NCBI GenBank assembly: GCA_964630235.1
Contig: CAZVUO010000001.1
Location: forward strand, 127,419-191,418
DNA: 64,000 nt
Origin: an uncultured bacterium
Lineage (GTDB): Bacteria > Oederibacteriota > JAAXVQ01 > JAUVAV01
Direction: 5' to 3'
The notes beneath the pieces are model-generated. The model saw nothing but the letters and a program-made list of their open reading frames with translations. It was not told the origin of the DNA and made no database searches. The translations under genes and the position numbers were made by a program. Each line of letters opens with the position of its first letter. Positions within the stretch are counted from its first letter, which is position 1. This document shows positions 1 through 56,092 of the stretch, in pieces.

Positions 1-528
<528 letters not shown>

Positions 529-630
529 CTAGGACGAGGTCTTGCCGGGGAGGGATTACACCCTAACCCCTAATGCCTCCCATGGTCTTTCGTCTCAAGC
601 GGTATCCCAGGGGTCAGGAAATAACAGTTT

Positions 631-755
631 ATGGAGCCCCCCGGGCAAAGCCCGGGGTACCAACTTCACCCCTCGCTACACCCTTTTGGCGACATCCCCG
701 AAGCAACGCTTCCGCATTCACCCCCGAGCAAGCTCGGGGTGCCCTGCGGAGGGGA
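631..755 (+). repeat. ~125-nt GC-rich multi-hairpin repeat element, copy A
   Basis: About 85-88% identical to the reverse complement of 6175-6300. Contains hairpins ccccgggc-aaa-gcccgggg, gaagc-aac-gcttc and cacccccgagc-aa-gctcggggtg. It is intergenic, between the gltX start and the bactofilin 3' end. Confidence 0.75.
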
Positions 756-769
756 CGGCCCGCGGCTTC
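746..769 (-). terminator. hairpin cccgcggctt-cctt-aagccgcggg immediately downstream of the bactofilin stop
   Basis: Perfect 10-bp inverted repeat just 3' of the minus-strand bactofilin CDS. Confidence 0.4.
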
Positions 770-787
770 CTTAAGCCGCGGGAGAAT

Positions 788-1177
788 TCATTTCCGGGCG
801 CGCAGAGGATCGAACTTCAGCTCGGGTTCGAACTTTTCAATTCCCATGTCGCAGTTGCCCTTGAAAATCACGCCGTCCGCGATGGCCACGCGCGGCGAGT
901 GTATGTCCCCCTGCAACTGGCCGGTCGGCATGATCTCGATCCGCTTGGAGGCGAACACATTGCCCGACACCTTGCCGGAGATCAGCACGGTCTTGGCCGT
1001 CAGATTGCCCTTCACGACCCCTTTTTCCCCGATGATCAGGCTTTCTTCGCTGGAAACGTTGCCTTCGATCTTGCCGTCAATGCGCACCGTGCCTTTGGCG
1101 TTGATCTGGCCTTTGATCTCCGAGCCTGCGCCCAGAATAGTATCCACGCCCTTGGCATTCGGGATTTCGTCGTTCAT
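788..1177 (-). CDS. bactofilin (CcmA-like polymer-forming cytoskeletal protein)
   Basis: 129 aa made of repeated G-x-V/I beta-helical motifs (KGTVRIDGKIEGNV..GEKGVVKGNLTAKTVLISGKVSGNV) with a C-terminal K/E-rich tail. Confidence 0.8.
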   Translation of the reverse strand: MNDEIPNAKGVDTILGAGSEIKGQINAKGTVRIDGKIEGNVSSEESLIIGEKGVVKGNLTAKTVLISGKVSGNVFASKRIEIMPTGQLQGDIHSPRVAIADGVIFKGNCDMGIEKFEPELKFDPLRARK

Positions 1178-1190
1178 CTGTCGGCTCCGT

Positions 1191-2108
1191 TTAGTCTTTC
1201 AGGTACTTCAAGGGATCAACCGGAATGCCGTTGAGGCGGATCTCGAAATGCAGGTGCGGGGCTGTAGAGCGGCCGGTGTTGCCCAAAAAACCGATCACTT
1301 GCCCGCGGCGGACCCGCTGGCCGACATTGACCAACTGGCGGCTCAGGTGTCCAAAGCGCGTGGAAAATCCGTATCCGTGATCAACGATCGCGAGTTTTCC
1401 GTATCCGCCTTCCCACCCTGAATACGTGACCACGCCGTCGGCCGGCGCCTTGATGGAAGTGCCCTCTTCATTGGCGATATCAATGCCCTGGTGAAACAGC
1501 GGACCTTCCTGGAAGGGAGATTGGCGCATGCCAAAACGGGAGGTCAGCCATCCGCGAACCGGCCAGGAGGAGGGACGCGAGGCCATGACCGAACGCTGGG
1601 TGGCGATGTACTTCTTCATTTCCTGGTAGGTATCCAGGCGCTCCTGGGCGTCTTTTTTGAGAAAAGACAAACTTTGATTAAATTCCTTTTGGGTCAGACC
1701 GGCTTTTTGGTTCAAGGTTCTCATCAGGTTGAGCTGGTCGGCCATGGTCGGCCCGCCTTCGCCTGTGTATTTGATCAATTCATTTTTATTTTGCATTTTC
1801 AGCATGGCCTGGAGTTCGTTCTCCATTTTAGCCACGCGTTGGAACGCTTCATGGGTATTCGCTAGTTCCTGTGCAAAAAAAGCGTTTTTCTCGGCCAGTT
1901 GGATGTTGGCCCGTTTGGTTAATTGGTAATCCAGATGGCGGGTCAGAATGTAGGAAGAAGAACCGATCAACCCCAGCGCAACCAGACCCAAGATGAACAG
2001 GAGTGTGTGGGAGATCCGCACCGAAAATATATTGCTTTCGTCGTGCGGCACCAGCATGAAGGTGAAGTAGCGCTTTTGTTTGCTGGATGTTTTTCCCATT
2101 TCTACCAC
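1191..2108 (-). CDS. M23 family (LytM-like) peptidoglycan metalloendopeptidase with N-terminal TM and coiled coil
   Basis: C-terminal HQGIDIA...GWEGGYGKLAIVDHGYGFSTRFGHL...GNTGRSTAPHLHFE, the M23 HxxxD / HxH zinc motifs; N-terminal hydrophobic segment. Confidence 0.85.
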   Translation of the reverse strand: MVEMGKTSSKQKRYFTFMLVPHDESNIFSVRISHTLLFILGLVALGLIGSSSYILTRHLDYQLTKRANIQLAEKNAFFAQELANTHEAFQRVAKMENELQAMLKMQNKNELIKYTGEGGPTMADQLNLMRTLNQKAGLTQKEFNQSLSFLKKDAQERLDTYQEMKKYIATQRSVMASRPSSWPVRGWLTSRFGMRQSPFQEGPLFHQGIDIANEEGTSIKAPADGVVTYSGWEGGYGKLAIVDHGYGFSTRFGHLSRQLVNVGQRVRRGQVIGFLGNTGRSTAPHLHFEIRLNGIPVDPLKYLKD

Positions 2109-2249
2109 CTAATTTCAGTCTCGGCCTTGTGCCGTAAATCTTAATATATCAATTTTATAAAAATCCGTCAACTATTTTGTCAGAATTGTCGTTTTTTATT
2201 TATCTATTGCGTTCCCGGAATGAGGCAGCTGCCTGGCACCCGAAAATCA

Positions 2250-3119
2250 TTATCTTAAAAGGGCTAAAATCCTGTCCAGATCTTCCAAGGAATAATATTC
2301 AATTTCGATCCGGCCTTTTTGAGCGTTGCGGGGAATGACGCGGACTTGAGTTCCCAATTTTCTTTTTATTTCATCCTCCAACTGACGGAGATGAGGATCC
2401 TTGATTTCCAGGCGCTTGGCACCCTTTGGTTTGGGCGCTTTTACCGGTTTCAGCCCCTGGGCCAGCTGCTCGGCTTCCCGCACGGACAAATTGTCCCGGA
2501 TAATCTTGTCCGCCAGCCGCTTCCGGGCCTCTTCGTCGCTCACGGCCAGCAAAGCCCGGCCGTGGCCTTCGCTCAGGCTGCCATTGCGTACCAGTTCCAA
2601 CAGCGGGGCGGACAGCTGCAGCAAACGGAGGGTATTGGCCACGGAAGAACGTTCTTTCCCGATCTTTTTAGCCAACTCTTCCTGGGTGAGTTCGAATTGA
2701 TTCAGCAGCTGGTTGAAAGCCTGAGCCTCTTCCACGGGATTGAGATCCTCGCGCTGGATATTCTCCACCAGCGCCAGTTCCAGACTTTCGGTGTCGCTGA
2801 TATCGCGGATCACCACCGGCACCTGGGCCAGGCCTGCCAGTTTGGCGGCGCGCAGCCGCCGCTCGCCGGCCACCAGCTCGTAGCGGCCCTCGCCGCGGGG
2901 GCGGACCAAAATCGGCTGGACAACGCCGTTTTCCCGCACCGAAGCGGTTAACTCTTCCAGTTCGTGGGGATGGAAATCCTGGCGGGGCTGGTGCGGATTT
3001 GGCACGATGCGGTCAACGGAAACCTCGGTCGGTGTGGAAGATGCGACGGGCGCGCCGTTCACGTCGCCGGAAACCGGGATCAACGCTTCCAGCCCTTTTC
3101 CCAATGCCTGTCTGCTCAT
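2250..3119 (-). CDS. parB: chromosome partitioning protein ParB/Spo0J
   Basis: [15 protein letters not shown] start; the [12 protein letters not shown] box and HTH region are present. The ORF-track start at 3257 is probably too far upstream. Confidence 0.9.
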
Positions 3120-3171
3120 GGTGCCAACGCCCCTTTGCCTGATATGCCCGCGTGGAGGTGTGGAAAAATGC

Positions 3172-3981
3172 CTAGACTTCCGCCCGCTCGGCTTCCGCGG
3201 AAGCCGGGACAGACGCCGTTTCGTTGCGCGCAATGACTTCCTCCGCCAGCCGCGCATACGCCAGCGCCCCGGGGCAGTGTTTGTCGTACTGCAGAATCGG
3301 TTTGCCGAAACTCGGTGCCTCGGACAGCTTGACGTTGCGCGGAATGATCGTGTCGTACACTTTGCTCTGAAACCGCTTCTTGATTTCCTGGATCACTTGC
3401 ACGGTCAGGTTGGTGCGCAAATCGCACATGGTCAGCAGCACGCCCTCGATCCGCAATTCCGGGTTGAGTCCGTTTTTCACCAGAATGATCGTCCGCAAAA
3501 GCTGTCCCACGCCGTCCAGGGCGTAAAATTCGCCTTGGATGGGAATCAGCACCGTGGCCGCGGCGGTCAGCGTGTTGATGGTCAGCAGACCCAGCGAAGG
3601 GGGACAGTCAATCAAAATATAATCGTACTGCTGCCGGATGGAACCAAGACCCTGACGCAGACGGGTTTCCCGGGCAATGACGTTCACCAATTCAATTTCC
3701 GCGCCGGACAGCTGAATGTTGGCCGGGGCCAAATCCAGGTTGGGAATTTCGGTTTTGGCGATAACCTCGTTGAACGGCTTGCGTCCGATCAGGACGTCAT
3801 AAATGCTGGTCGGCAGCTTCTCCTTGTCAAAACCCAGGCCGACCGTGGTGTTGCCCTGGGGGTCAATGTCAATGAGGAGGGTTTTTTTTCCCTGGGCGGC
3901 CAGTCCGGCGCCCAGGTTGATGGTCGTGGTGGTCTTACCCACCCCGCCTTTCTGATTGACAACGGCGATAACCTTGCTCAT
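3172..3981 (-). CDS. parA: chromosome partitioning ATPase ParA/Soj
   Basis: MSKVIAVVNQKGGVGKTTTTINLGAGLA deviant Walker A; full-length 269 aa. Confidence 0.92.
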   Translation of the reverse strand: MSKVIAVVNQKGGVGKTTTTINLGAGLAAQGKKTLLIDIDPQGNTTVGLGFDKEKLPTSIYDVLIGRKPFNEVIAKTEIPNLDLAPANIQLSGAEIELVNVIARETRLRQGLGSIRQQYDYILIDCPPSLGLLTINTLTAAATVLIPIQGEFYALDGVGQLLRTIILVKNGLNPELRIEGVLLTMCDLRTNLTVQVIQEIKKRFQSKVYDTIIPRNVKLSEAPSFGKPILQYDKHCPGALAYARLAEEVIARNETASVPASAEAERAEV

Positions 3982-4541
3982 GAACCACCCTGCGGCAAGG
4001 TGCAGGGTATGCAGACATCATGCCCCGCAGACATGCCACCTTGTTCTTCCCCAGCAGCCAGTAGATAGATGGCGAAGGGGTATCAACCTTCCACGACTGC
4101 TGGTTGACTCTCCGGGTTCTATCCGGAAAGGGTTAGAAGTAACACAGCCCACTGGGATTGTAAAGCAAATAATCCGGCCGCCTGGCCTGCGTCTTGGCCG
4201 CCGGGAACACTTCCCCGGGTCCATGGTCCCACAGGCAGTGCCTCCGCAACCCCATCCCGAAATTCCTCTCCCCGGCCTTCAGCTTCCACCGGGACCTGCT
4301 GCCGGGAATTCCCGTGGAGGAATGGAAAACCAGCGAGTGGAATAATGGTGGTGTGTGGATGTGGGTGTGGGTCCGGCGCCAGGCTCGCGCGGCCGAAGCC
4401 GCTTTTCCGGTGGTGGTACGGTCTGCAATGGCAAAGTATAACACATTTTACGAGGGGGTGCCATGGGGAACATCCTCGCCCGATTTATTTATGCAAGGAA
4501 TTTTCACCAGGCCGGTCCAATCATTTCAGGAGGTGTCTGCC

Positions 4542-6174: not shown

Positions 6175-6300
6175 TTCCCCTCCGCAGGGCACCCCGAGCT
6201 TGCGCGGGGGTGAATGCGGAATCGCTGCCCCGGGGATGTCGCCAAGAGGTACTAGCGAGGGTTGAAGTTGGTACCCCGGGCTTTGCCCGGGGGGCTCCAT
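6175..6300 (-). repeat. ~125-nt GC-rich multi-hairpin repeat element, copy B (inverted relative to copy A)
   Basis: Reverse complement aligns to 631-755 with a few substitutions. It is intergenic, between the yifB stop and the start of the O-antigen-ligase-like gene. Confidence 0.75.
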
Positions 6301-28181: not shown

Positions 28182-29729
28182 TCAGCGCGACATCTGCAGG
28201 ATCTTGATGGCGTCCTTGGCCCGCTGTACCTGCGGGTCAATCTCGAGCTTCAACCGGCGGGCGGCTTTGACCCCCTCCAGCTTCTCGGCGATTTCCTGGC
28301 GGATCTCGCCCAGAATGAATCGCAGGTCCTCATTCCACTGGATCAGGTTGATCTCGACGTTCTGGTCCTTCAGCCATTGCTGGAACGCCTCGGCCAGCAA
28401 TTCATCCTTGGTCTTGGGTTTGAGCTTGCTCCAGGATTTTTCCGACACTTTGACGGTCTCGTTGTTGACCTGCGCTTCCTCGCCCTTGGGATGGCGTTTC
28501 AGGTAGAACAGCGCGAACTCCTTGAAATAATTGCCGCCGCGCATCTTCAGCATGAACTCGTTGGGTTCGAAGGAGTCCACGGCCAGATCCGGCGTGATGC
28601 CGTTGCCATGAATCAGCTGCCCCTTGGGCGTGAGATACCGCGCCGTGGTGATGCGCAGGGCCGAGCCGTCGCCCAGGGGGATGATGGTCTGGACCGAGCC
28701 CTTGCCGAAGGTTTTCTGCCCCACGATCACGCCCAGGTTCCAGTCCTGGACCGCGCCCGCCACGATCTCGGAGGCCGAGGCTGAACCGGCGTTGACCAAT
28801 AGCGCGAGCGGCACGGTTTTCATGGGCCTCAGCGCCGAGGAGAAAAAGCGGATGTTTTGCGCCTTGTGGCGCCCCTCGGTGTAAACGATCAGCTTGCCCT
28901 GGGGCACGAAGTACTCGGCGATCTCCGCGGCCATATTCAGGAGCCCGCCGGGATTGTTGCGCAAGTCCACCACCAGGCCCTTGATGTTCTGGGACTCCAA
29001 GGCCCGCAGGGCCTGGTTAAAGTCCTCGCCCGTGCGTTCCATGAATTCGGTGACGCGGATGTAGCCGATGCCGTCCGAGAGCAGTTCGTGCCGCACGGAC
29101 TGGATCTTGATGATGTCGCGGATCAGCGGCACGTCGAACCAGTCCTGGGCGCCCCGGCGCCGGATGGTGATCACGCACTTGGTGCCCTTGAGTCCGCGCA
29201 TCTTATGCACCGCGTCCAGGATGGTGATCCCTTCCGTGCTCTCGCCGTCGATCTTCATGATCTCGTCGCCCGGCTGGATGCCGGCGCGCTCGGCCGGCGT
29301 GCCGTCGATCGGCGAAATGATGGTCAGCTGGTTGTTGCGAATGGAAATTTCGATCCCCAGGCCGCCGAAACTGCCCCGGGTGTCCTCGCGCATGTCCTTG
29401 TAGCTCTGGGGGTCCATGAACTGGCTGTAGGGATCCAGTTCGCCCACCATGCCCTTGATGGCGCCGTAGACGAGGTCCTTCTGGTCAATCTTCTCCACGT
29501 CCACGTAGTTGTTCTTGATGAGCGCCATGGATTGGATCAGGGGCCGCAGGCTCTCGTAGCTGTCCTCGGTCAGGCTGACGTCGTCGCCCGAAGAGCGCGA
29601 GGCGCCCGAGAGCCAGCCCCCGAAAAAGCCCATCAGGGTGATGAACAGCACCAGGGTTGTGGTCCAGATGGCTTTCTTTAAGTTGAACATCCGATGATAC
29701 CCTCCTCGGCGGCTCAGCGTTCCAGCCAT
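28182..29729 (-). CDS. ctpA: carboxyl-terminal processing (S41, tail-specific) protease with PDZ domain
   Basis: N-terminal TM, PDZ (GIEISIRNNQLTIISPIDGTPAERAGIQPGD), S41 catalytic region (...GSASASEIVAGAV...TFGKGSVQ). Confidence 0.88.
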   Translation of the reverse strand: MAGTLSRRGGYHRMFNLKKAIWTTTLVLFITLMGFFGGWLSGASRSSGDDVSLTEDSYESLRPLIQSMALIKNNYVDVEKIDQKDLVYGAIKGMVGELDPYSQFMDPQSYKDMREDTRGSFGGLGIEISIRNNQLTIISPIDGTPAERAGIQPGDEIMKIDGESTEGITILDAVHKMRGLKGTKCVITIRRRGAQDWFDVPLIRDIIKIQSVRHELLSDGIGYIRVTEFMERTGEDFNQALRALESQNIKGLVVDLRNNPGGLLNMAAEIAEYFVPQGKLIVYTEGRHKAQNIRFFSSALRPMKTVPLALLVNAGSASASEIVAGAVQDWNLGVIVGQKTFGKGSVQTIIPLGDGSALRITTARYLTPKGQLIHGNGITPDLAVDSFEPNEFMLKMRGGNYFKEFALFYLKRHPKGEEAQVNNETVKVSEKSWSKLKPKTKDELLAEAFQQWLKDQNVEINLIQWNEDLRFILGEIRQEIAEKLEGVKAARRLKLEIDPQVQRAKDAIKILQMSR

Positions 29730-30916
29730 CCCAGTGGATCCAGCGCTTCGCCCTGCCGGCGGACTTCAAAGTACAGCGCCGGCCCTTTCCAGGTGCCGGA
29801 ATCGCCCAATTCGCCGATCAGCTGGCCGGATTGCACCGCTTGGCCTTCGGAAACCAGTATTTTCTGCAGGTGGGCATAGACGCTGTTGTAGCCGGCGCCG
29901 TGATCCAAAATCACCATGCGACCGTAGCCTTCAAACCACTCGGCGAACAACACTTCGCCCTGGGCCACGGACGTGACATTTTGACCCATCGTTCCGGCGA
30001 TGTCAATTCCTTTGTGTAATATATAGGTATTAAAGCGGGGATGCTTGGTCCGGCCGAAGCGCGTCACGACCCGGCCGCGGGTCGGCCAGGGCAGGGCGCC
30101 GCGCTGCTGGGCGAAGTGGCGTCCGGCCTGGGCCAGCCGGCGGGACAGCCGCCGCGTGCGCTGTTCAAGCTCGGTAATGAGCCGGGTCAGGCGCTGGGAA
30201 GCCTGGTTGAGCTCGCGCAGGGCCTGCTCCTGCTCGGACCGCTCCTGGCGGACGCGGCGCAGGATTTTCTCCCGGCTCGTCTGGTGGGCTTTGATTTTAT
30301 TCACCGAGTGCCGGGCGGACGTCTCCAGCTCCGCGGCCTGAACCTCGCGCCAGCCGAGCTCGGCGTGCTGAGCCTGCATCTGGGCCCGGCGCGCGAGCAG
30401 CTGCCGGATCAGGTCGCCGTTCTGGGCGGCCAGCACATGGAAACACTTCACCCGGGTCAGCCCCTGGCTGAGCGACGGGGCCGTCACCAGCGTCCGCCAA
30501 AAACCCGCTTGCCGTTCACGGTACAGGAGGCGCAGGCGCACGGCCAGGAGCTCCCTGAGCCGGGCCCCTTCCGCTTCGTTTTGCTTGAGGCGAAATTGCA
30601 GGTTGGCGATGGCGGTCCGGACCAACCGGAGGTTTTCCCGCTGTTCGGCGTGCTGGGCTTCCGCTTCCTCGATCTTCTGGCCGACCTGCTGGATCTCCCG
30701 CAAAATCGAACGTTCCTGCTTCCGCTGTTGCTGTACGTTCTGTTCGGTCCGGCGGATCTGTTCGCGCATTTCCTTCAGACCCTGCCGCTCCTGCCGCAGA
30801 TCCTGCCGCACCCGGTTGAGCTGTTCCTGCAGGTCCTGCGGGGTCGCGGCCGCGGCGGCCGAGGGACTCAACGCGGCCAGGCAGAGCAAAACCCCCCTGA
30901 GCCGGCTGCCTTTCAT
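29714..30916 (-). CDS. EnvC-like coiled-coil M23 peptidase (murein hydrolase activator)
   Basis: Signal peptide, ~250-aa coiled coil, C-terminal M23 domain (HKGIDIAG...GYGRMVILDHG...). Sits directly downstream of ftsX, as envC does. Confidence 0.8.
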   Translation of the reverse strand: MKGSRLRGVLLCLAALSPSAAAAATPQDLQEQLNRVRQDLRQERQGLKEMREQIRRTEQNVQQQRKQERSILREIQQVGQKIEEAEAQHAEQRENLRLVRTAIANLQFRLKQNEAEGARLRELLAVRLRLLYRERQAGFWRTLVTAPSLSQGLTRVKCFHVLAAQNGDLIRQLLARRAQMQAQHAELGWREVQAAELETSARHSVNKIKAHQTSREKILRRVRQERSEQEQALRELNQASQRLTRLITELEQRTRRLSRRLAQAGRHFAQQRGALPWPTRGRVVTRFGRTKHPRFNTYILHKGIDIAGTMGQNVTSVAQGEVLFAEWFEGYGRMVILDHGAGYNSVYAHLQKILVSEGQAVQSGQLIGELGDSGTWKGPALYFEVRRQGEALDPLGWLER

Positions 30917-39429: not shown

Positions 39430-41310
39430 TTAACGCACCACGACAAACTTTTTCTTGATCGTCCGCTTGCCCCCCGCGTCCTCCACCTGGAGGGTGGCGT
39501 AGTAGAACCCCGGCGCCAGGGCGCGGGTGTCCAGGTCCGTAACCGCGTTCCCGCGCACGGCCTGGGGCTGGTCCTCGACGCGGGCCACGATCTCGCCCGT
39601 GGCGTTGAAGATCACGATCTTGACCTGGCCAGGCCCTTCGAAATGGTAGATAAAGCGCGCCACCTCCCTGGCCGGCTGGGGAAAGACCACGCTTTCGTCG
39701 GACCGCAAGATATAGGGAGTCGTCGTGGATGTGATGGTAATGGTCGGAGTGATAGTCCTTGTAGGGGTAATCGTAGAAGTTGGCGTGAACGTGGAAGTAC
39801 GAGTAATCGTGGGCGTTGATGTTCTCGTTGGTGTTCTGGTACGTGTGGGAGTTATAGTAGGGGTCGGAGTGATCGTCGGTGTGGCAGTGTGGGTGGGGGT
39901 AATGGTCGGGGTCGGGAAGATGCTTAGAGCACGGAGCACATTAATTCGACCGCTGCCGATGGCTGATGAACTTCCAGAATCAACGCTATCGCAGTTACTT
40001 AGTATCCTCGTTCTGATTTGGGCTGATGTCATCGCGGGCCAGGCAAGCTTGATCATAGCGGCCAGTGCTGAAACCTGCGGGCAAGAAAAGGAAGTCCCAT
40101 CCACAGAACTCCAACCACCTGTGTTTGCAGTAGATGTGACACCGTTGTCTTCCGGAAACGAAGGATGATATTGTTGTAATGCCCCTCCAGGAGCGACACA
40201 GTCCAATCGCGAAGCATCGTAAGGGCTGCAGTAATTTGAATAATAGGTAATAAAATCCTCTGAGTCGGTTGCTCCGACACTCATAACACTCGCATAACAC
40301 GCAGGATACCGAGGCGCAGTTGCCAAATTAATATTCTCATTTCCTGCAGAGGCGACCATTAATTTGCCGGCGCTATTAGCGTAATTAATTGCCGTCAAAA
40401 TCGTGGCTGAATCAGTGCCGGTGGTGAAACTCATGCTCAAGATATCCGCCCCATTATCTACAGCCCAGGTAATCCCATCCGCGATATCAATAAATGTTCC
40501 AGCGGCGTCTTGGTCCAGTACTTTTACGGGCATGATCTTCACCCGGTTATCATAAGCTGTTCCCGCAATCCCGCTGCTATTGTTAATAATGGCTGCGATC
40601 GTGCCCGCAGCGTGTGTGCCATGTCCATAAATTGGGCGGCCGCCGAAAAAGATATTGTCATCGTTGGTATTTGTGTTGTTAAGGATTACGTTGTATCCCG
40701 GAACCAACCGACCGGAAAATTCAGCATGGTCGGCGTCAACACCCGTATCTAAAACCGCCACCACCACCTGCTGGGTGTTGAAAAAATAATTAGCCGCTTT
40801 AGCCGCGTCCCCACGCGTGCGGTTGATCCACCATTGCGTAAACCCATTTACATAATAAGTGTCGTTGAATGAACCTCCGATAGGTGTATAGGTAGTTGAA
40901 ATAGCCGCTGCGTAAACACGGCCATTAGGCTCGATGGCTTCGATTATTGCGTTCCCTCGCATGGCAGCCAACGCAGAAGCCACTGATTGCCCTGCGGGGA
41001 GTTCCAATAGATTCCAGTCTTTCAACCTCGTTTGACGCTTTACCCGAGTTTTAAAATGACGGTGAAATGCCGCCTCCGCAGTTGCGATATTTATGGCACT
41101 GGCTTGTACCTGGGTATTAAATCGCATACGGTCTTCCGCAGTTAGAACACTCTTATACTTGACTAATATTTCACCCTCAAAGTAGTCATTTGTCTTTTGG
41201 CAGGGATGCGGAAGAATTGGCATACCTGTTTTATCCGGACGATTGGCGGAAAACACCACTGAGGGGTAAAGGGCAATTATTAATATCAACAATCGGGAAA
41301 TACAGTTCAT
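39430..41310 (-). CDS. secreted S8 subtilisin-like serine protease + TP linker + C-terminal sorting-type domain (AT-rich gene)
   Basis: Signal MNCISRLLILIIALYPSVVFS; catalytic triad contexts VAVLDTGVDADHAEF / HGTHAAGTIAA / GTSFSCPQVSALAAM; TP-rich linker; C-terminus ...[17 protein letters not shown]...GFYYATLQVEDAGGKRTIKKKFVVVR. GGAGAGGTG RBS before the ATG at 41310. Confidence 0.85.
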   Translation of the reverse strand: MNCISRLLILIIALYPSVVFSANRPDKTGMPILPHPCQKTNDYFEGEILVKYKSVLTAEDRMRFNTQVQASAINIATAEAAFHRHFKTRVKRQTRLKDWNLLELPAGQSVASALAAMRGNAIIEAIEPNGRVYAAAISTTYTPIGGSFNDTYYVNGFTQWWINRTRGDAAKAANYFFNTQQVVVAVLDTGVDADHAEFSGRLVPGYNVILNNTNTNDDNIFFGGRPIYGHGTHAAGTIAAIINNSSGIAGTAYDNRVKIMPVKVLDQDAAGTFIDIADGITWAVDNGADILSMSFTTGTDSATILTAINYANSAGKLMVASAGNENINLATAPRYPACYASVMSVGATDSEDFITYYSNYCSPYDASRLDCVAPGGALQQYHPSFPEDNGVTSTANTGGWSSVDGTSFSCPQVSALAAMIKLAWPAMTSAQIRTRILSNCDSVDSGSSSAIGSGRINVLRALSIFPTPTITPTHTATPTITPTPTITPTRTRTPTRTSTPTITRTSTFTPTSTITPTRTITPTITITSTTTPYILRSDESVVFPQPAREVARFIYHFEGPGQVKIVIFNATGEIVARVEDQPQAVRGNAVTDLDTRALAPGFYYATLQVEDAGGKRTIKKKFVVVR

Positions 41311-41518
41311 TGTCGCACCTCTCCCTTTATAATAAGCATGTCCAAGTATAACAAGGCTTCCTATGAGAGGCAAGAGGTGCCGCCTCATTCTTTTAATTAA
41401 AATACCGACAAAACAAAGCTTTTTGTTTGCGTTTTGGGCACAATTCAAATACCCTTTTAAATATATAGAACATATTAGTAATTGATCGGGTTAATGAATG
41501 ACTCTCCAGGAGGAATCA

Positions 41519-44500
41519 TGGACAAATATTATAAAAACGGTTTGTTGTGGGTTACCCTTCTTTCCCTTGCAAGCGTCCCTTACCTATCAAGTCAAATATT
41601 CCATCACGAACAGGGCGAAGGCTTAATAAAAAATCAATCCGAGTGTTTTAACCATAGCAATGACAGATTGATTTATTTATCAAAAACTTTAGTACACCCC
41701 AAAGTCCTGCGGGCGGGCGCAACTAAATCCTGGATTGATAAAGCTCTTGAAACAATTGAAAATTATGAATATTTAGTGACCCACATTTCAGCGCGTCCCC
41801 AAGCAACCAATAGGCAACAAAATTTTCGTTCTTTTTTTGAACCTCAGGGAGTCACACTGCATCCTCGTGGTTTATCACAACGAAACCAGCATCGAGAACA
41901 TTCGAAGTCGTCATTAATAAATCGAAACAATAAAAATGTTCCACTTCCATCATGGAAGTGGAAATGGGAGACTAAAGAATTTGGCAGACGAGGTCTTTTA
42001 CACCCAATTTCCCCAGCCAAACCCATAATTAATGGCAATCGTGTAGAATATAATCGAGGTCCAATAACAGAGTGGTATGAAAACCGCCCGGAAGGTTTGG
42101 AACAAGGATTTATTATATTTCAAAGGCCAACTATTTCTGCAACCACTCTATCTTCAACTAATTTACCTAATAATGAATGGGTTATTATTGCTTCACATGA
42201 AATACAGGATTTGAAATTACGGCTCTCCTTCGATAATAAAAGCATATACTTTCTTGATAATAACCAAAATATTGTACTGGAATATGGGCAACTATTAGTT
42301 AAAGATAGAAATCAACATATATTACCCTCTAAATTGGGGGTTGAAAATAACAGGATTATTCTATCTTTTTCCGATAAAAATGCTACCTATCCCATAGTTA
42401 TTGATCCTTTACTAACCGCCCCCTCTTGGGCCAGAGAAAGTAATCAGGCCTTCGCTTTCTTTGGTTGTAGTGTAGCAAGTGCAGGAGATGTCAATGGTGA
42501 TGGATTTAGTGATGTACTTATTGGCGCATATGGTTTCGATAATGGCGAATCTGGCGAAGGACGCGCTTTTGTTTATCACGGAAGCGCATCCGGCCTTTCT
42601 TCAGTACCAAATTGGTCCGCAGAAGTTAATCAAGCTGACGCCCATTTCGGATGGTCGGTTTCTTCGGCCGGAGATGTTAATGGCGATGGATTTAGTGATG
42701 TAATTATCGGAGCCTACAAATATGATAACGGTGAAACCGACGAAGGCCGAGTTTATGTTTACCATGGTAGTCCATCAGGCCTCACTGTTTCACCCAATTG
42801 GACCGCCGAAGGTAATGAATCGAATGCTGTTTTCGGGTATTCCTTGGCTACCGCCGGTGATGTCAATAATGACGGTTATAGCGATATATTAATTGGTTTT
42901 AGAAATCACGTGTGCGTTTTTCACGGCAGTTCGACCGGCCTATCCAACACCCCCGCTTGGCTATACACAAACAATCAACCTGATTCCAACTTTGGCTATT
43001 CTGTAGCAGGAGCCGGAGATACCAATGGTGATGGGTTTAGCGATATTATCGTTGGGGATCATGGATTTGACAATGGTGAAACAAATGAAGGTAGTGCATA
43101 TGTCTTTCTCGGGAGCCCCACGGGTGTTACTACTACAGCCTTCTGGACTGCCGAAAGTAATCAAGCAGAGGCCTGGTTTGGCTTTTCCGTAGCCTGTGCG
43201 GGCGATGTTAATGGCGATGGATACAGTGACGTAATCATTGGGGCCCCCTATTGCGATAATCCCGAAACAAGTGAAGGCTTGGCATATGTATTTCATGGTA
43301 GTACATCGGGTCTTGCCCCTGTAGCATCATGGGTAGCCGAAAACAATCTTGCATTTAACTTTTTAGGATATTCCGTGTCCGGTGCTGGTGACATTAATGG
43401 AGATGGTTTCGGCGATGTTCTTGTTGGTATCCGCGGATATGACAATGGTCAGTCAGATGAGGGGCAGGCGTGCGTTTATCACGGAAGCGCAAGCGGACTT
43501 GCTACCGCACCATCATGGTCTGCCGAAGGCAACCTCGAATACAGCAGTTTCGCTAACGCTTTATCTAGTGCCGGCGATGTTAATGGCGATGGTTATAGCG
43601 ATGTAATTATTGGTGCATCGACTTATGATAATGGCGAAGCAGACGAGGGCCGGGCGTTCGTATTCAACGGAAGTGCTGTTGGTTTGACCCCAACCGCTTA
43701 TTGGTCCAACGAGAATAACCAGCCAGGTTCGCGACTGTCTACTTCCGCCGCTTATGCAGGAGACCTGAACGGTGATGGTTATAGTGATTTAATTGTAGGA
43801 GCCCCTTATTATGACGGAGTTTATAACGAAGCTGGCCGAGTGTATATTTTTCTTGGTAAATATGAAGGATTAAGTTTGACTGCCAACCAAACTATAGATG
43901 GTGGGATAGCCAGCGCTCTTTTTGGTTCTTGCGTATCGACGGCAGGCGATGTAAATGGCGATGGATTTTGCGATGCAATTGTTGGGGCCCCACATTTTAG
44001 TAATGGCGAAAGCAACGAGGGAATTGCTTATGTGTTTTATGGAAACGCCACCGGTCTTAATGCGAGTGCTTCATGGTCTTTTGAAAGTAATCAGATCGGC
44101 GCTCAATATGGATCTGCCGTATCTTCTGCTGGTGACGTAAACGGGGATGGATATGCAGATGTTTTAATATCATCGCCTTTTTATAACAACCTCGGAAGAG
44201 TATATTTATTCTTAGGTGGCGCCTCTGGCCTAGATAGTAATCCAGCTTGGTATGCCGAAGGAGATCAGATTAATGCGCAATTTGGCTCTGCAATCTCAAG
44301 TTGTGGAGACGTTAATGGTGATGGTTTTGCCGATATCGTTATCGGTGCCCCATTCTATGATAACGGCCAAACTGACGAGGGACGTGCGTTCGTATATTTG
44401 GGTCATTCAGGCGGATTAAGCAACCTTCCTGTATGGACCACCGAGAGCGGTCAAGCAGATGCGCAATATGGCCGTTCTGTTTCTTCGGCCGGAGATGTAA

Positions 44501-45708
44501 ACGGGGATGGTTATAGTGATGTGGTCATAAGCGCACCGTTTTACGATAATACCCAGAGCAACGAAGGTCGCGTATATGTCTATCACGGAAATGCCAACGG
44601 CTTGATCGCAACTCCTTCGTTTGCAGTTGACAGTGGTCAGAATAATGCTCAATTTGGCTGCTCAGTGGCTAGCGCAGGAGATATAAACAACGATGGATAT
44701 TGCGACATCATTATCGGCGCTTATCAATTGAACAATGGCCGTGCATACATATTCTTCGGTAGTACTAGCGGTCTGAACATCACCGCGAATTACTTCATAG
44801 ATGGCGACCAATCCGGTTCACAGTTCGGATATTACGTGGCTGGCACTGGAGACGCCAATGGCGATGGATACAGCGATGTGATTATTGGTGCGCCTTATTA
44901 TGATAATGGCCAAACCGACGAAGGAAAAACATTTCTCTATTACGGAAACGAAGGTGTCGCGACACGTCAGTTGCCACGCCAGATACGGCCAAGTAATAAC
45001 ACAGCAATCGGGCCTTCCGGATTAGCGGCCGCCTCAATTGCAAACACCGAATTCCTTGTCCGTTTGTTTTCAAAGGGAAGCCAAGGTCGATCTCGTTCAA
45101 AATTACAGGTTCAAATTTCCTCGCCAAGCCAACCAATTTCAACCGGAATCATTTATTCACAATCTTCATATACAGATACGGGGGTGGCGGGACTAGATCT
45201 AAATTTCATTGTTGGTGGTCTAAATCCTCAAAAGGCATATAATTGGAGAGCCCGTTTACTATACGATCCAAGTCAGAATAATAACGGTCAGCTTCATAGC
45301 CCATGGTATAGATTGTCATGGGGAAGTTTGAATGGTAACGCAGATTTCCGCACCGGGCCAGCGGCCCCTGCAACACCAACTCCAACACCCATTCCAACTA
45401 TATTGCCACCAGAAGATTTTCAGGGTCAGTTAATCGACAGTAAACACTTCTTTGTTTATCCAAATCCTGCCCGTGGGACGAATGTAAAATTCAAGTTTTT
45501 CCTGAAACAGGCAGCAACTGTAAAAATAAAAATATTTACCCCTCAAGGAAAATTTGTATGGGAAAAAGTAAATGAATATCCGCTTGGTTGGAGTGAAATA
45601 ACTTGGAACGCATCAGGAATGGCTAACGGTGTATATTTTTATATTGGAGAAGCTAAAAATAGCTTATACCAAGATAAAATCACAAAAAAGCTTGGTCTTG
45701 TTAAATAG
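41519..45708 (+). CDS. giant (1408 aa) secreted FG-GAP/integrin-alpha-type beta-propeller repeat protein with C-terminal sorting-type domain (AT-rich gene)
   Basis: About 18 repeats of ...F.G.SV..AGDVNGDGFSDVIIGA...DNGE.DEGRAFVY.GS..GLS... C-terminus FFVYPNPARGTNVKFKFFL...KIKIFTPQGKFV...GVYFYIGEAKNSLYQDKITKKLGLVK. AGGAGG RBS before the ATG at 41519. Confidence 0.85.
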
Positions 45709-45815
45709 CCGTTTTTTTTTACCGATTTATCGTTAGCTGTTTTGTTATCTGCGAATTGTTCTTAACTGTTCTCGTTATTTTTCGAGTCGCATCTGTTAGG
45801 CGAATTGCTTTCCTA

Positions 45816-45845
45816 TTTACAAAAATGCTCTTCCAAGCCTATAAT
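45816..45845 (+). promoter_or_regulatory. sigma70-like promoter (TTTACA-N18-TATAAT) upstream of the DUF4870 gene
   Basis: tttacaaaaatgctcttccaagcctataat, 45 bp upstream of the ATG at 45892. Confidence 0.45.
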
Positions 45846-45891
45846 ATCGGCAATTTCAGCTGTATGGCTTCACCCCAGGAGGAAACACCCC

Positions 45892-46251
45892 ATGTCCGTG
45901 CATGCCCATCACGAGGGCCACAGCGACCTTGGCACGACCAAGTCCGGCCTGGACCCCACGGTCGCGGCCGCCCTGGCCTATCTGCTGGGATTTGTCAGCG
46001 GCATTCTCTTCTATATCATCGAGAAGCACAATCCGTTTGTCCGTTTCCACGGCCTGCAGTCCACCATCTTCTTCGGCGGCTTGTTCGTGATTGTGGCCGT
46101 GCTGCACCAGATCCCCATTCTGGGCTTTATCCTCAATTTCATCATCCTGTTGACTGCTTTCGTCATCTGGCTGTTCCTGATGGTCAAAGCCTCCCAGGGC
46201 ATCGCCTTCAAACTGCCCTTTATCGGCGACCTCGCGGAACGCAATCTGTGA
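45892..46251 (+). CDS. DUF4870-family small membrane protein
   Basis: MSVHAHHEGHSDLG... then ...YIIEKHNPFVRFHGLQS... with 3 TM helices. AGGAGG RBS. Confidence 0.65.
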   Translation: MSVHAHHEGHSDLGTTKSGLDPTVAAALAYLLGFVSGILFYIIEKHNPFVRFHGLQSTIFFGGLFVIVAVLHQIPILGFILNFIILLTAFVIWLFLMVKASQGIAFKLPFIGDLAERNL

Positions 46252-46393
46252 ACTTCCCTGCAGCGACTTATGGGCCGTCCTTTAGGACTTGCTGCAGGGA
46301 ATCCGGAGATCATACCCCGGAACCGTGCCGCTTTCATTCACGCAACCAGCTGTGGCATTCGGTGAAGGGGTATAGGCCTGGAGCTGTCCCCGC

Positions 46394-47143
46394 ATGCTGA
46401 ACGGCTTGCGCATTGCCGTGGTCCTGCCCGCCTACAACGCGGCCAAAACCCTGGACCAGACCTTCGCTGAAATCCCCCGCGACACCGTGGACGAGATCAT
46501 CCTGGTGGACGATCACAGCCGGGACAACACCGCAGACAAGGCCCGGCAGCTCGGCATCGAAACGCACCGGCACGAGGCCAACCTGGGATACGGCGGCAAC
46601 CAGAAAACCTGCTACCGGCTGGCCCTGCAGAAGCAGGCCGACATCGTGGTCATGCTCCACCCCGATTACCAGTATACGCCCAAGCTCCTGCGCGCCATGT
46701 GCGCCATGATCGCGGACGGCGCCTACGACGTGGTCCTGGGCTCGCGTATTTTAACCGGCGGTGCCCTGCACGGCGGCATGCCGCTGTACAAGTATCTCAG
46801 CAACCGCGTGCTCACCCTGGTGGAAAACTGGCTGCTTGGCGCCAAACTCTCTGAATACCACACCGGCTACCGGGCCTACCGCCGCGAAGTGCTGGAGAAG
46901 ACCCCCTTCGACAAATTTTCCAATGACTTCATTTTCGACAACCAGTTCCTGATCGCGGTCATCCAGCAGGGCTGGCGGCTGGGCGAGCTCTCCTGCCCGA
47001 CCCGCTATTTTCCCGAAGCCTCCTCGATCAACTTCGGCCGCAGTTTGCGTTACGGCATCCTCTGCCTGTGGTACGCCTTAACCGCCAGCTGGTCCCTGCT
47101 GCCCCGCCGCCTCCGCAAGCTGTTCGGCCCACGCGCGTCCTGA
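46394..47143 (+). CDS. family 2 glycosyltransferase (dolichyl-phosphate mannosyltransferase-like)
   Basis: IAVVLPAYNAAKTLDQTF...DEIILVDDHSRDNTADKARQLG... with DxD context; 249 aa. Confidence 0.8.
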   Translation: MLNGLRIAVVLPAYNAAKTLDQTFAEIPRDTVDEIILVDDHSRDNTADKARQLGIETHRHEANLGYGGNQKTCYRLALQKQADIVVMLHPDYQYTPKLLRAMCAMIADGAYDVVLGSRILTGGALHGGMPLYKYLSNRVLTLVENWLLGAKLSEYHTGYRAYRREVLEKTPFDKFSNDFIFDNQFLIAVIQQGWRLGELSCPTRYFPEASSINFGRSLRYGILCLWYALTASWSLLPRRLRKLFGPRAS

Positions 47144-47241
47144 CCATCCCCACCGCCGTTTTTTCGTTTCCTACTCCCCGTTCTTGACCGTGGGTGGTAT
47201 AATGATAGGGAAGTGATCCTGACAAGGAGCGGTGGCCTCAA

Positions 47242-47439
47242 ATGGCGGAAGAATGCGAACTGCTGCCCAAGTGTGGTTTTTTCAAGAAATATATGGAAAC
47301 CAAGGAACTGGCCTGCCAGGGTTTCGTCGCCCAGTACTGCCGCGGCCCCAAGATGAACGAATGCAAGCGCAAGGAGTACCGTCAGAAGCACAACGCGCCG
47401 CCGCCTGACAACATGCTGCCCAGCGGCGCGATGTATTGA
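47242..47439 (+). CDS. small (65 aa) Cys-rich hypothetical protein
   Basis: MAEECELLPKCGFFKKYMETKELACQGFVAQYCRGPKMNECKRKEYRQKHNAPPPDNMLPSGAMY, five Cys. AAGGAG upstream; a strong terminator follows. Confidence 0.45.
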   Translation: MAEECELLPKCGFFKKYMETKELACQGFVAQYCRGPKMNECKRKEYRQKHNAPPPDNMLPSGAMY

Positions 47440-47459
47440 TCGCTTCGGAAGCGGATAAA

Positions 47460-47512
47460 ATAGAACGGGCGGTCGGGCCACAGCAGGCCTGACCGCCCGT
47501 TCTATTTTTAAT
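47460..47512 (+). terminator. rho-independent terminator (15-bp stem then T-run)
   Basis: atagaacgggcggtc...gaccgcccgttctat followed by tttttaattt. Confidence 0.7.
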
Positions 47513-47552
47513 TTCCTGTTCTCCTGCTCAACTGCTCAAATGCTCTGAAAAA

Positions 47553-47586
47553 ATCCTCCGGCGCCTAAGCGCCGGACGATTTTTTC
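47553..47586. terminator. bidirectional terminator hairpin tccggcgc-ctaa-gcgccgga flanked by A-run and T-run; the ruvX stop codon lies in the loop
   Basis: aaaaaatcc upstream and cgattttttcc downstream. The ruvX TAG is the complement of 47565-47567, inside the loop. Confidence 0.6.
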
Positions 47587-47996
47587 CTGTCCAGCCAGGT
47601 CTGCAGGATGAGCGCCGCGGCCAGTTTGTCCACCACGGCGCGCTTTTTAGCGCCGGACATCTCGGTCTCCGAAAGCACGCGCTGGGCCGCGGCGGTCGTC
47701 AGCCGTTCGTCCGCGTATTCCAGGGCGATTCCCGTTTCCTGCGACAGGCGTTCGCCAAAAACCCGGGCTTCCTCGGCGGCCGGACCCTCTTCCCCGCTCA
47801 GGCGCCGGGGCAATCCCACCACGATCCGTATAACGCCGTGCCGCCGCGCCAGTTCCGCGATCTCGGTGAAAATGGTTTTTTCCCGGTTGGGGAGCACGAC
47901 CAGCGGCTGGGCGGTCAATCCCAGGGGGTCGGACAGGGCGAGGCCGATGCGGCGCGACCCGTAGTCCACGCCCAGGACGCGGCCGGAAGCAGCCAT
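47565..47996 (-). CDS. ruvX: Holliday junction resolvase-like protein RuvX/YqgF
   Basis: MAASGRVLGVDYGSRRIGLALSDPLGLTAQPL... RNase H-like YqgF family, 143 aa. Confidence 0.88.
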   Translation of the reverse strand: MAASGRVLGVDYGSRRIGLALSDPLGLTAQPLVVLPNREKTIFTEIAELARRHGVIRIVVGLPRRLSGEEGPAAEEARVFGERLSQETGIALEYADERLTTAAAQRVLSETEMSGAKKRAVVDKLAAALILQTWLDRKKSSGA

Positions 47997-49669
47997 CACA
48001 TCCTGCCCGAGCGCAGGATGGCTAAGATCAAGAGCAGACCGAACACGCCGGCCAGCACGAACCCCGCGAGTCCCAGCACCGAGAACCCGCCCCACTGGGG
48101 GCCGATCTGGGATGCAAGGATCCAGGCCGAACCCATGATCAGGGCCGCGACGACCAGGGCCACGGAGAGCCGGTTGCCCGTGCGATCCAGGTCGTACCGC
48201 AGGTCCTCCAACCCTCTGTGCTCGAACTCCATCTTAAAACGGCCGCGCTGGAGCTTGTCCAGCAGATCCTGCAGACGGGCTGGCAGACTGCTCATGAAGC
48301 GGCGCAGGTCCTGCATCTGTCTCACGGCCCGCTCGGCCAGCTGGCGGGGCTCGTAACGGCGCCGCATAATGGCCGTGGCCATGGGTTGGGCGGCCTCAAC
48401 CAGGTTGAGCTTGGGGTTGAGCCTGCGCGCCATGCCTTCGGCGCCCAGGAACGTCTTGACCAGGACCACGAAGTCAGCGGGCAGCTGGATGCGGTGCTTG
48501 AGCGAGAGTTCCACCACCTCCTGCAGGGAACTGCCCACGGAGATCCGGGCGACCGGCAGATCGTAATATTGTTCCATGAACAGCGCGGCATCGCGGGCCA
48601 GACTCCGTCGGTCCAAGCCTTCCTCCGCGGTGCCCAGACGCAGATAGGCGTCCACCAGGGCCTCGGTGTCCTGGTTGGCCAGGGCGAGGAGCATATCCGT
48701 GAACGCGGCCACGGTCTCGCTGTCCAGGCGCCCGACCTGTCCGGCGTCAATGAACGCCAGCTTGCCGGCCGGGGTCAGCAGGAAATTCCCCGCGTGCGGG
48801 TCCGCGTGGAAAAAACGGTCCTCCAGGGCCATGTAGATATAGGCGTCAATCAGGTTCTGGGCGAGCTGCTTCCGCCTGTCCGCCGAAAGTCCGGGCAGCG
48901 CCTGGCCGAGCTTGCGGCCGGGAATGAACTCGAGGGTCAAACAGCGCGGCGTGGACAGGTTCCAGTAGACCTTGGCGAACTGATATCCCGGCCGGTCCTT
49001 GAAGTTCCGCGCCAGGCGCTCCAGGTTGCGGCCCTCGCGCAGGAAATCCAGCTCGGCCTGGATCAACTGCTCGAATTCGTCCACGAATTCCACGGGGCGC
49101 CGGGGCAGGGTTTCGGGCTGGATCTTTTCCCAGGCCCGGGCGAGGAAGCGGATGATTTGCAGGTCGGATTCCACGCGGCGCCGCAGGTCCGGCCGCTGAA
49201 GCTTGACCACGACCTGGCGCCCGTCCCGGGTCACGGCCCGGTGCACCTGGGCGATCGAAGCCGCGGCCAGAGGTTTGGCTTGAAAGGATTTGAACAGGCG
49301 GGCCACTGGAGCGCCCAGTTCCCCGCGGATCAGCGCCTGGGGCGTGGGCTGGGTGAACGGCGCCACCCGGTCCTGCAATTTGGACAGCTCCTGCACGTAG
49401 GCCGGCGGCAGCAGGTCCGGCCGCATGGACAGCACTTGCCCCAGCTTGATGAAGGTCGGCCCCAGTTCCTCCAGGGTCTGGCGCAGGCGGGCGGGAACGC
49501 CGGCCTTGGGCTTGGGCGGACGCGTGACCCTGGCCTTGGCCGGCAAATACGCTCCCAGCTGCAGCTGCGAAACCAGGAAACCGAACCCGTGCTTCGTGAG
49601 AATGGCGGCGATCTCGCGCAGGCGGTTGAGATCCTGGATCGCGTTGCCCAGGCCGGGAAGGGGAGGCAC
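47996..49669 (-). CDS. ABC1/UbiB-family atypical protein kinase
   Basis: ...FKSFQAKPLAAASIAQVHRA... FIDAGQVGRL... kinase-like motifs and a C-terminal TM helix; 557 aa. Confidence 0.8.
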   Translation of the reverse strand: MPPLPGLGNAIQDLNRLREIAAILTKHGFGFLVSQLQLGAYLPAKARVTRPPKPKAGVPARLRQTLEELGPTFIKLGQVLSMRPDLLPPAYVQELSKLQDRVAPFTQPTPQALIRGELGAPVARLFKSFQAKPLAAASIAQVHRAVTRDGRQVVVKLQRPDLRRRVESDLQIIRFLARAWEKIQPETLPRRPVEFVDEFEQLIQAELDFLREGRNLERLARNFKDRPGYQFAKVYWNLSTPRCLTLEFIPGRKLGQALPGLSADRRKQLAQNLIDAYIYMALEDRFFHADPHAGNFLLTPAGKLAFIDAGQVGRLDSETVAAFTDMLLALANQDTEALVDAYLRLGTAEEGLDRRSLARDAALFMEQYYDLPVARISVGSSLQEVVELSLKHRIQLPADFVVLVKTFLGAEGMARRLNPKLNLVEAAQPMATAIMRRRYEPRQLAERAVRQMQDLRRFMSSLPARLQDLLDKLQRGRFKMEFEHRGLEDLRYDLDRTGNRLSVALVVAALIMGSAWILASQIGPQWGGFSVLGLAGFVLAGVFGLLLILAILRSGRM

Positions 49670-53659: not shown

Positions 53660-53670
53660 CCGTACATTCA

Positions 53671-54041
53671 GGGGAGTAGTCCATAAGCCGAGTTCTGTCC
53701 CCCTTGCGGGGTGACGGTCATTTCTCTGGGACCAGCCTTGCGGCTGGCCTCTAGCGACCAACCCGAGGGCGCCGCGGGTCACGGTTTCCGGCGGCAGAAC
53801 CGCCGAAGCCCTCCTATTTGGTCTTGCTCCAAGTGGGGTTTGCCCTGCCACGCCGGTCACCCGGCGCGCGGTGAGCTCTTACCTCGCCTTTTCACCCTTA
53901 CCGCCCGCCTCGCGGCGGGAGGCGGTATGTTTTCTGTGGCACTTTCCTTCGCGTCGCCGCGACTGGGTGTTACCCAGCACTCTACCCTGGGAGCTCGGAC
54001 TTTCCTCCCCGGGCGCGAAGCCCGGAGCGACCGTCTGGACT
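53671..54041 (-). ncRNA. rnpB: RNase P RNA, bacterial type A
   Basis: Minus-strand sequence reads ...CGCCGGGAGUAGUCC(P1)...GGAGGAAAGUCCGAGCUCCCAGGGUAGAGUGCUGGGUAACACCCAGU...GCCACAGAAAACAUACCGCC...GGUAAGGGUGAAAAGGCGAGGUAAGAGCUCACC...ACAGAACUCGGCUUAUGGACUACUCCCC(P1). All universally conserved RNase P blocks are present and P1 closes. Confidence 0.9.
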
Positions 54042-54108
54042 ACTCCCGGCGATCGATTCGTCTTGGGAAGCGATCGCCATCACCTGCTCACCTTTCCCCT
54101 GCTCCAGC

Positions 54109-55706: not shown

Positions 55707-56092
55707 GCGGACCCCTCTCCCTTGTCCTTGAGCTGGCGCTCCACGTGCCGCAGCAGGCGTTCGGCCGTGCACGGTTTGACCAGGTAGTCGTCCGCGCCGC
55801 CGTCGGCGGCCATCCGCAAGGCATCCTGGTGGGAGAGCGCGCTTAAAAAGATCACCGGAATATGTTTGGTGCCCGGGTTCTCCTTGATGATCTGGCAGAC
55901 CTCGTAGCCGTTGACCCGCGGCAGCATGATGTCCAGGATAATGAGGTCCGGCCGTTCCCGCGACACGGCCTGCAGCGCCTCCCAGCCGCGCTGAAAAGTC
56001 TTCACGATATAGCCGCGGCTCTCCAGCACGTCCTTGAACAGTTCGACAATGCCGGGGTCGTCGTCCACGAGGATGATCCGTTTCCCGGCCAT
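55703..56092 (-). CDS. stand-alone response-regulator receiver domain (CheY-like)
   Basis: MAGKRIILVDDDPGIVELFKDVLESRGYIVKTF...DLIILDIMLP...DDYLVKP; Asp pocket and phospho-acceptor context present; 129 aa, no output domain. Confidence 0.85.
   Translation of the reverse strand: MAGKRIILVDDDPGIVELFKDVLESRGYIVKTFQRGWEALQAVSRERPDLIILDIMLPRVNGYEVCQIIKENPGTKHIPVIFLSALSHQDALRMAADGGADDYLVKPCTAERLLRHVERQLKDKGEGSA

Follow-up and report, generated by a model that had tools for sequence, protein, structure and literature searches.

In Hyphomonas neptunium as well as Rhodospirillum rubrum the DD-endopeptidase LmdC is recruited by the bactofilin BacA via a cytoplasmic hairpin, and adjacent bactofilin and M23 peptidase genes have been reported for 226 species (Pöhl et al., 2024; PMC10945521); ParB has 0 occurrences in that paper. 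In Helicobacter pylori an M23 gene likewise lies beside the bactofilin gene, and the Csd1-Csd2-CcmA system contains a heterodimer of an active and an inactive M23 protein (Csd1/Csd2). Bactofilin genes have also been described next to chromosomal partition genes. The genes parA-parB-bacM-MXAN_7474 of Myxococcus xanthus are co-transcribed (PMC3899335; PMC5703909), and BacM is a cell-shape bactofilin that is reported to be dispensable for chromosome segregation (PMC3899335). M. xanthus is the only organism known to us for which a parA-parB-bactofilin operon has been investigated. In Bdellovibrio bacteriovorus the bactofilin gene bd3904 directly follows parB (PMC10547168). The BacNOP scaffold of M. 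xanthus is encoded away from parAB and positions ParABS via the ParB-like adaptor PadC (PMC5703909). Here we describe a locus in a 64-kb stretch of DNA from an uncultured bacterium (contig CAZVUO010000001.1, positions 127,419 to 191,418; hereafter called the window), in which parA, parB, an M23 peptidase gene and a bactofilin gene follow one another on the minus strand. The nearest named homologues belong to candidate division FCPU426, an uncultured phylum.

As in the LmdC-BacA system, the M23 and bactofilin genes of the window are adjacent, and the predicted M23 protein combines a short cytoplasmic N-terminus with a hairpin, a single membrane helix, a helical part resembling a coiled coil and a catalytically intact M23 domain. 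Unlike in that system, the M23 gene precedes the bactofilin gene and lies directly downstream of parAB, the bactofilin has no MFSK-type membrane-targeting peptide, and activity and binding are assumed by analogy. The position of the bactofilin gene downstream of chromosomal parAB is shared with M. xanthus and Bdellovibrio, but here an LmdC-type M23 gene, of which none is described in these two organisms, lies between parB and the bactofilin gene, and FCPU426 has an additional predicted internal promoter. With BacNOP-PadC the locus has in common that a bactofilin is associated with the partition system, here by gene neighborhood; a PadC-like adaptor gene was not found in the window, where the canonical parB is the only ParB-family match. 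In comparison with the H. pylori system, Csd1 is among the best structural matches of the M23 protein, whereas a single M23 gene adjoins the bactofilin gene of the window and a pair of active and inactive M23 paralogues was not found beside it.

The protein families, the pairing of bactofilin and M23 genes and the parAB-bactofilin operon were thus each known before, while little seems to have been written on how widely the four genes are linked: a full-text search of a collection of open-access papers and preprints found no paper describing a conserved parAB-M23-bactofilin cluster. Our analysis adds that, in at least four named phyla, the bactofilin-M23 pair of the sampled M23 subfamily mostly follows chromosomal parAB directly on the downstream side, that the four genes overlap in some lineages, which points to a single operon there, and that the predicted internal promoter is conserved in FCPU426. 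This raises the question whether bactofilin-guided wall remodeling is timed by the segregation machinery or attached to it.

Conservation of the parA-parB-M23-bactofilin gene order

The four genes of the window are all located on the minus strand. The gene parA (3172..3981) encodes a Soj-type partition ATPase of 269 amino acids (Pfam AAA_31 2e-68, CbiA 3e-27) and parB (2250..3119) a Spo0J-type CTPase/DNA clamp of 289 amino acids with matches to ParB_N, HTH_ParB, ParB_C and TIGR00180. They are followed by the gene of a putative LmdC-type bitopic M23 endopeptidase of 301 amino acids (1191..2096; Peptidase_M23 1e-36) and by the bactofilin gene (788..1177; 129 amino acids; PF04519 3e-30). The first-pass annotation of this DNA had identified the same four open reading frames (ORFs) and had pointed to bactofilin precedents in Myxococcus and Helicobacter; coordinates, families and precedents all hold. 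The gaps given there (53, 140 and 13 nt) were essentially right and are refined here to 52 nt between parA and parB, 153 nt from parB to the M23 gene, and 13 nt between the M23 and bactofilin genes. The longest ORF of parB extends to 3257, while the actual start is the ATG at 3119, which gives the 52-nt gap after parA. The M23 gene starts with the ATG at 2096 rather than the GTG at 2108; this ATG is invariant across five related genomes and has GGTG at the expected ribosome-binding position upstream. Therefore, the spacer between parB and the M23 gene amounts to 153 nt (141 nt if the GTG were used). The bactofilin start is preceded by GGAG inside the 13-nt gap.

The conservation of this gene order, which the first-pass annotation had proposed to check, is strongly supported by the comparison with other genomes. 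We annotated 160 M23 loci by hidden Markov model (HMM) and phmmer searches of six-frame ORFs. The loci came from two similarity scans with the M23 protein of the window, which gave only relatives with at most 42% identity among the matches listed, and the FCPU426 loci were collected individually. All five FCPU426 genomes examined, the window and four relatives (L001, L169, L170, L171; M23 identity 63-71%), have the order parA-parB-M23-bactofilin, in a common layout that begins with ComM on the other strand and, in some of them, a response regulator, and continues with parA, parB, M23, bactofilin and gltX. The following counts all refer to the matches listed. The M23-bactofilin pair is kept in 42 sampled M23 gene entries. 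Where the upstream sequence of a bactofilin-paired M23 gene could be assessed (35 cases), parA-parB lies upstream on the same strand in 27 and is missing in 8. Among M23 genes without a neighboring bactofilin gene, only one has parA-parB in this position and 102 do not. When full-length LmdC-like M23 proteins were clustered at 50% identity, 13 clusters with bactofilin were linked to parAB and 7 were not, compared to 0 and 23 clusters without bactofilin (Fisher's exact test, p = 2e-6). These synteny counts exclude a chance adjacency or a peculiarity of one genome.

Named carriers of the arrangement are FCPU426, Gemmatimonadales, Zixibacteria and Bacillota, to which many further metagenomic lineages have to be added. 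The linked carriers range from 35 to 71% guanine-cytosine (GC) content, and the arrangement persists at M23 identities of about 30%. A member of the Zixibacteria (L053) has the order gidA-gidB-parA-parB-M23-bactofilin, and two metagenome-assembled genomes (MAGs) of Bacillota have gidB-parA-parB-[LarBC]-DUF4446-M23-bactofilin. In a member of the Gemmatimonadales (L172), where gidA precedes the cluster, neighboring genes of the four share 4, 4 and 1 nt, respectively, as is typical of a tight operon. Among the matches listed, 16 of 26 linked entries have 12-45 nt between parB and M23, an approximate value as it was taken between HMM match boundaries. Nevertheless, the link is not rigid, since several lineages have unrelated genes (DUF4446, LarB/LarC, a SpoU methylase, a histidine kinase) inserted behind parB and ahead of M23. 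Furthermore, M23-bactofilin pairs without parAB nearby exist (L005; L008, Wukongibacter; L076, Paenibacillus), so the pair is a module that is able to stand alone.

Some variants of the cluster were also noticed. The DUF4446 gene is located between parB and the M23-bactofilin genes in both Bacillota MAGs (L042 2824-3366, L057 5296-5823), and in L042 it is followed by one further unannotated ORF; no mention of DUF4446 was found in the open-access and preprint literature searched. The same MAG carries two tandem M23-bactofilin pairs downstream of parAB (L042 4069-6842). Three FCPU426 relatives (L001 4615-4980, L169 2334-2702, L171 2571-2948) encode a single-domain response regulator just upstream of parA and in the same orientation. 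Neither the window nor L170 has it at this position; a homologue with 36-39% identity is encoded elsewhere in the window (55721-56092, minus strand).

The partition pair and parS

Judged by its domains and motifs, the parA/parB pair is a canonical chromosomal partition pair. The ParA translation contains the deviant Walker A motif KGGVGKTT of ParA/MinD-class P-loop ATPases. ParB matches ParB_N (1e-34), HTH_ParB (7e-38) and ParB_C (6e-13) in Pfam, scores 199 bits on TIGR00180 (cutoff 58) and carries the N-terminal sequence LGKGLEALI, as expected for a ParA-activating peptide, as well as a GERRLRA box.

A search for the canonical parS consensus TGTTNCACGTGAAACA, in which sites with at most 2 mismatches were accepted, gave no site in the 64-kb window or in the four FCPU426 relatives. 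The absence of parS from the window, already noted in the first-pass annotation, is thereby confirmed; the only matches there have 3 mismatches and occur at chance level. A comparison of 14-16 nt palindromes across the five genomes revealed none in common, and neither a canonical nor a variant parS was found in the window or its FCPU426 relatives. The parS of this lineage may be located elsewhere in the genome or may be divergent. In other lineages parS sites with at most 2 mismatches were found in 15 parAB-linked M23 loci, within 1-3 kb of the M23-bactofilin pair, and none in 1.2 Mb of the remaining loci. As parS is confined to the parAB-linked loci, these are genuine chromosomal ParABS loci.

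Two near-identical perfect 16-bp palindromes are present in the window, GGCTTCCGCGGAAGCC at 3190-3205, inside the 3' end of parA, and GGCATCCGCGGATGCC at 59977-59992. They are unlike canonical parS and not conserved in the relatives, and by our estimate chance alone would produce about two 16-bp palindromes in 64 kb with the GC content of the window.

The M23 protein and the bactofilin

According to an AlphaFold2 model (predicted local distance difference test score 79), the M23 protein has the layout of LmdC, in which a beta-hairpin on the cytoplasmic side is followed by a single membrane helix, a periplasmic coiled coil and the M23 domain. In detail, the model contains hairpin strands at residues 10-15 and 24-29, a helix at 30-99, helices at 118-173 and the M23 domain at 183-293. 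The helix 30-99 opens with a hydrophobic, putatively membrane-spanning stretch LLFILGLVALGLIGSSSYIL. In an alignment of 20 full-length homologues H202 and D206 (HxxxD), H250 and H281/H283 (HxH) are invariant and P17 is nearly invariant. As the metal-binding and catalytic residues are kept in these homologues, the protein should have peptidase activity, in contrast to EnvC and NlpD. The nearest solved structures are NMB0315, H. pylori Csd1 (5j1l, 3e-26) and the LytM domain of EnvC, and the NCBIfam model of the Pgp3 shape peptidase reaches 96 bits (cutoff 300).

The bactofilin match to PF04519 (DUF583) spans profile positions 1-97 of 98, and the core matches the bactofilin of Thermus thermophilus (6ria, 7e-12) and BacA of Caulobacter crescentus (2n3d, 2e-10). 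Canonical membrane-binding bactofilins have an MFSKKKK-type N-terminal consensus for membrane targeting (PMC12448750). No sequence of this type was found at the N-terminus of the window bactofilin, which reads MNDEIPNAKG, nor is the N-terminus of the L001 protein (MAEEKSRG) of this type, while the other parAB-linked bactofilins mostly start with MFG.. or Mx(x)FS. Without such a peptide, the window bactofilin probably depends on its M23 partner for membrane attachment.

FCPU426 bactofilins (window 788-1177; L001 7925-8305) have in common the C-terminal tail EKFEPE(L/T)K(F/Y)DP with basic residues behind it, which was not seen in bactofilins of other phyla. A comparison between phyla showed that the tails are not conserved, and no shared docking motif was visible. 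A second M23-domain ORF of 400 amino acids is located in the window 28 kb from the first (29714-30916, minus strand), and no further bactofilin match was found elsewhere in the window. Outside the FCPU426 set linked to parAB, the closest M23 homologue has 56% identity (L003 6151-7918); it has neither bactofilin nor parAB genes nearby and is preceded by the gene of a 277-amino-acid protein without Pfam match.

A predicted internal promoter in FCPU426

A site scan predicted a strong sigma-70-type promoter with extended -10 element (TTGACG-17-TGnTATATT) in the spacer between parB and the M23 gene at 2143..2171 on the minus strand. It is the best promoter-like site in the region 400-4400 of the window and is top or joint-top in each of the five scanned FCPU426 regions, with 10-11 of 12 consensus positions in addition to the TG. 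In FCPU426 this spacer measures 119-205 nt between the called genes, and its sole conserved block in the five genomes consists of AAAATA(A/G)TTGAC(A/G/C), 17 nt ending in TTG, and TATATTA; the -35, TG and -10 elements are invariant and the remainder is unalignable. The palindrome AGGCAGCTGCCT, located in the spacer of the window, is not conserved in the relatives. A conserved terminator after parB was not found in any of the five genomes.

Because of this conserved internal promoter in a long spacer, the M23-bactofilin pair of FCPU426 is most likely at least partly a transcription unit of its own, with read-through from parAB being possible. The first-pass annotation had placed all four genes in a single operon. 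This proposal stands insofar as no terminator was found that would block read-through from parB, whereas a simple single operon in this genome is weakened by the predicted promoter in front of the M23 gene, a kind of finding that the first-pass annotation itself had named as speaking against its proposal; this holds for this lineage only.

Possible coupling of chromosome partition and cell-wall remodeling

The four-gene order, recurring in several distant phyla, hints at a coordination of chromosome segregation with cell-wall shaping, along the lines of the coupled segregation and pole or shape module suggested in the first-pass annotation. We put the probability at about 0.6 that the locus combines a canonical partition pair with an LmdC/BacA-type wall module in an old, parS-proximal arrangement and that the two are coupled by co-expression. 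Our analysis shows the identities of the genes, the protein architecture, the catalytic residues, the synteny statistics and the conservation of the promoter; for enzyme activity, binding of the bactofilin to the hairpin, the mode of transcription and the reason why the genes stay linked, we infer the following picture. By analogy with LmdC-BacA of H. neptunium and R. rubrum, the bactofilin would polymerize at the cytoplasmic face of the membrane and bind the M23 protein, which crosses the membrane once, at its short N-terminal beta-hairpin. This binding would position the periplasmic, catalytically intact M23 DD-endopeptidase, which would loosen peptidoglycan cross-links locally and thereby allow remodeling of the cell shape, the pole or the division site. 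The order parA-parB-M23-bactofilin would be old, widely retained near parS and operon-like in many lineages, and the linkage most likely reflects joint expression with the segregation machinery rather than a physical complex. In FCPU426 the pair would have gained or kept its own promoter, so that its expression could be separated from that of parAB, with possible read-through. We assume a coupling by expression rather than by contact because of the precedent in M. xanthus, the lack of a shared motif in the bactofilin tails and the internal promoter in FCPU426.

Several points weigh against this interpretation. The assignment of the M23 protein to the LmdC type rests on architecture and gene context, and both the use of the promoter and read-through are predictions from sequence. 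The proportion of linked pairs (77%) holds for the sampled M23 subfamily and not for all bactofilin-M23 pairs. Finally, a linkage that persists like this, even where reading frames overlap, might point to a functional tie which is more direct than co-expression.

Such a direct tie would exist if parA-parB-lmdC-bacA were an ancient multi-phylum operon in which the bactofilin polymer, held by the M23 protein, is a landmark that docks ParA or ParB-parS, so that segregation and wall hydrolysis form one machine. If true, the positioning of the origin would be tied to peptidoglycan hydrolysis taking place locally, at the pole or where the cell will divide, in a PadC-independent and far more widespread version of the bactofilin-ParABS link of Myxococcus. 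The linkage is indeed strong and phylogenetically deep, with 13 clusters below 50% M23 identity and the gene overlaps in L172, and the parS sites of the 15 loci lie close to the pair. An interaction of bactofilins with ParABS has a precedent (PMC5703909), and in M. xanthus and Bdellovibrio bactofilin genes are found directly behind parB. However, the window contains no PadC-like adaptor, and BacM, although encoded in the parAB operon of M. xanthus, is reported to be dispensable for segregation (PMC3899335). In addition, the bactofilin tails have no docking motif in common across phyla, and the pair in FCPU426 appears to be transcriptionally uncoupled by its own promoter. The conservation of gidA-gidB-parA-parB also illustrates that genes kept together at this locus do not have to interact. 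We regard direct docking as possible but unlikely.

It is also conceivable that the neighborhood is simply frozen: the pair would have landed beside parAB early and stayed there since the parS-proximal region is rarely rearranged, and co-expression would be incidental. This is in line with the insertions between parB and M23, which did not disperse the cluster, with gidAB-parAB as a comparable conserved and functionally mixed cluster, and with the 8 bactofilin-paired M23 loci that are located elsewhere in the genome among the matches listed. On the other hand, overlapping stop and start codons and parB-M23 distances of about 12-45 nt are kept over lineages with 35-71% GC, which indicates selection for joint transcription and translation, and the arrangement outlasts a divergence of the M23 proteins to about 30% identity. 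As overlapping frames are kept across very different genomes, a functionless neighborhood is less likely, and we consider this explanation improbable.

The idea that the M23 protein is a non-enzymatic amidase activator for cell separation like EnvC or NlpD, with a coiled coil and a degenerate LytM domain, draws on the EnvC LytM domain as top structural match, on full-length EnvC structures aligning across 307-341 columns in the fold search and on EnvC, ActS and NlpD among the sub-threshold NCBIfam matches, but it is ruled out for practical purposes by the zinc-binding and catalytic residues, which are lost in EnvC/NlpD and all present and invariant here (HxxxD 202-206, H250, HxH 281-283), and it is at odds with the modeled N-terminus, a cytoplasmic hairpin and membrane helix instead of a signal peptide, and with NCBIfam scores that are all far under cutoff.

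Neighboring features of the window

A 10-bp GC-rich stem-loop, CCCGCGGCTT-AAGG-AAGCCGCGGG, was recognized by sequence inspection at 759..782 on the minus strand, 6 nt past the bactofilin stop codon, and is a possible transcript end. The terminator scan did not call it because no U-tract follows the stem-loop. Beyond it lies gltX with its start at 470. On the other side of the cluster, upstream of parA, a ComM/Mg-chelatase-like gene, a Wzy_C-TPR gene and dnaE are oriented divergently from parA.

An inverted repeat of 125 nt (631-755 and 6176-6300, 92% complementary), which contains GC-rich hairpins, flanks the 5.4-kb block that reaches from the bactofilin gene to ComM. The window contains only these two copies, and zero copies were found in the four FCPU426 relatives. 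Its folding clearly beats shuffled sequences for one of four strands tested (z = -3.1). With only two copies, none in the relatives and no clear structure signal, the repeat was rejected as boundary of a mobile element.

A segment of low GC content extends from 39430 to 48000 (GC 0.45-0.53 vs about 0.64 elsewhere) and may represent acquired DNA. It encodes an FG-GAP-repeat protein of 1408 amino acids with a C-terminal sorting domain for type IX secretion (41482-45708, plus strand), whose gene adjoins that of an S8 subtilase (39430-41448, minus strand). Finally, an RNase P RNA of the bacterial class A type is encoded at 53669-54046 on the minus strand (305 bits).

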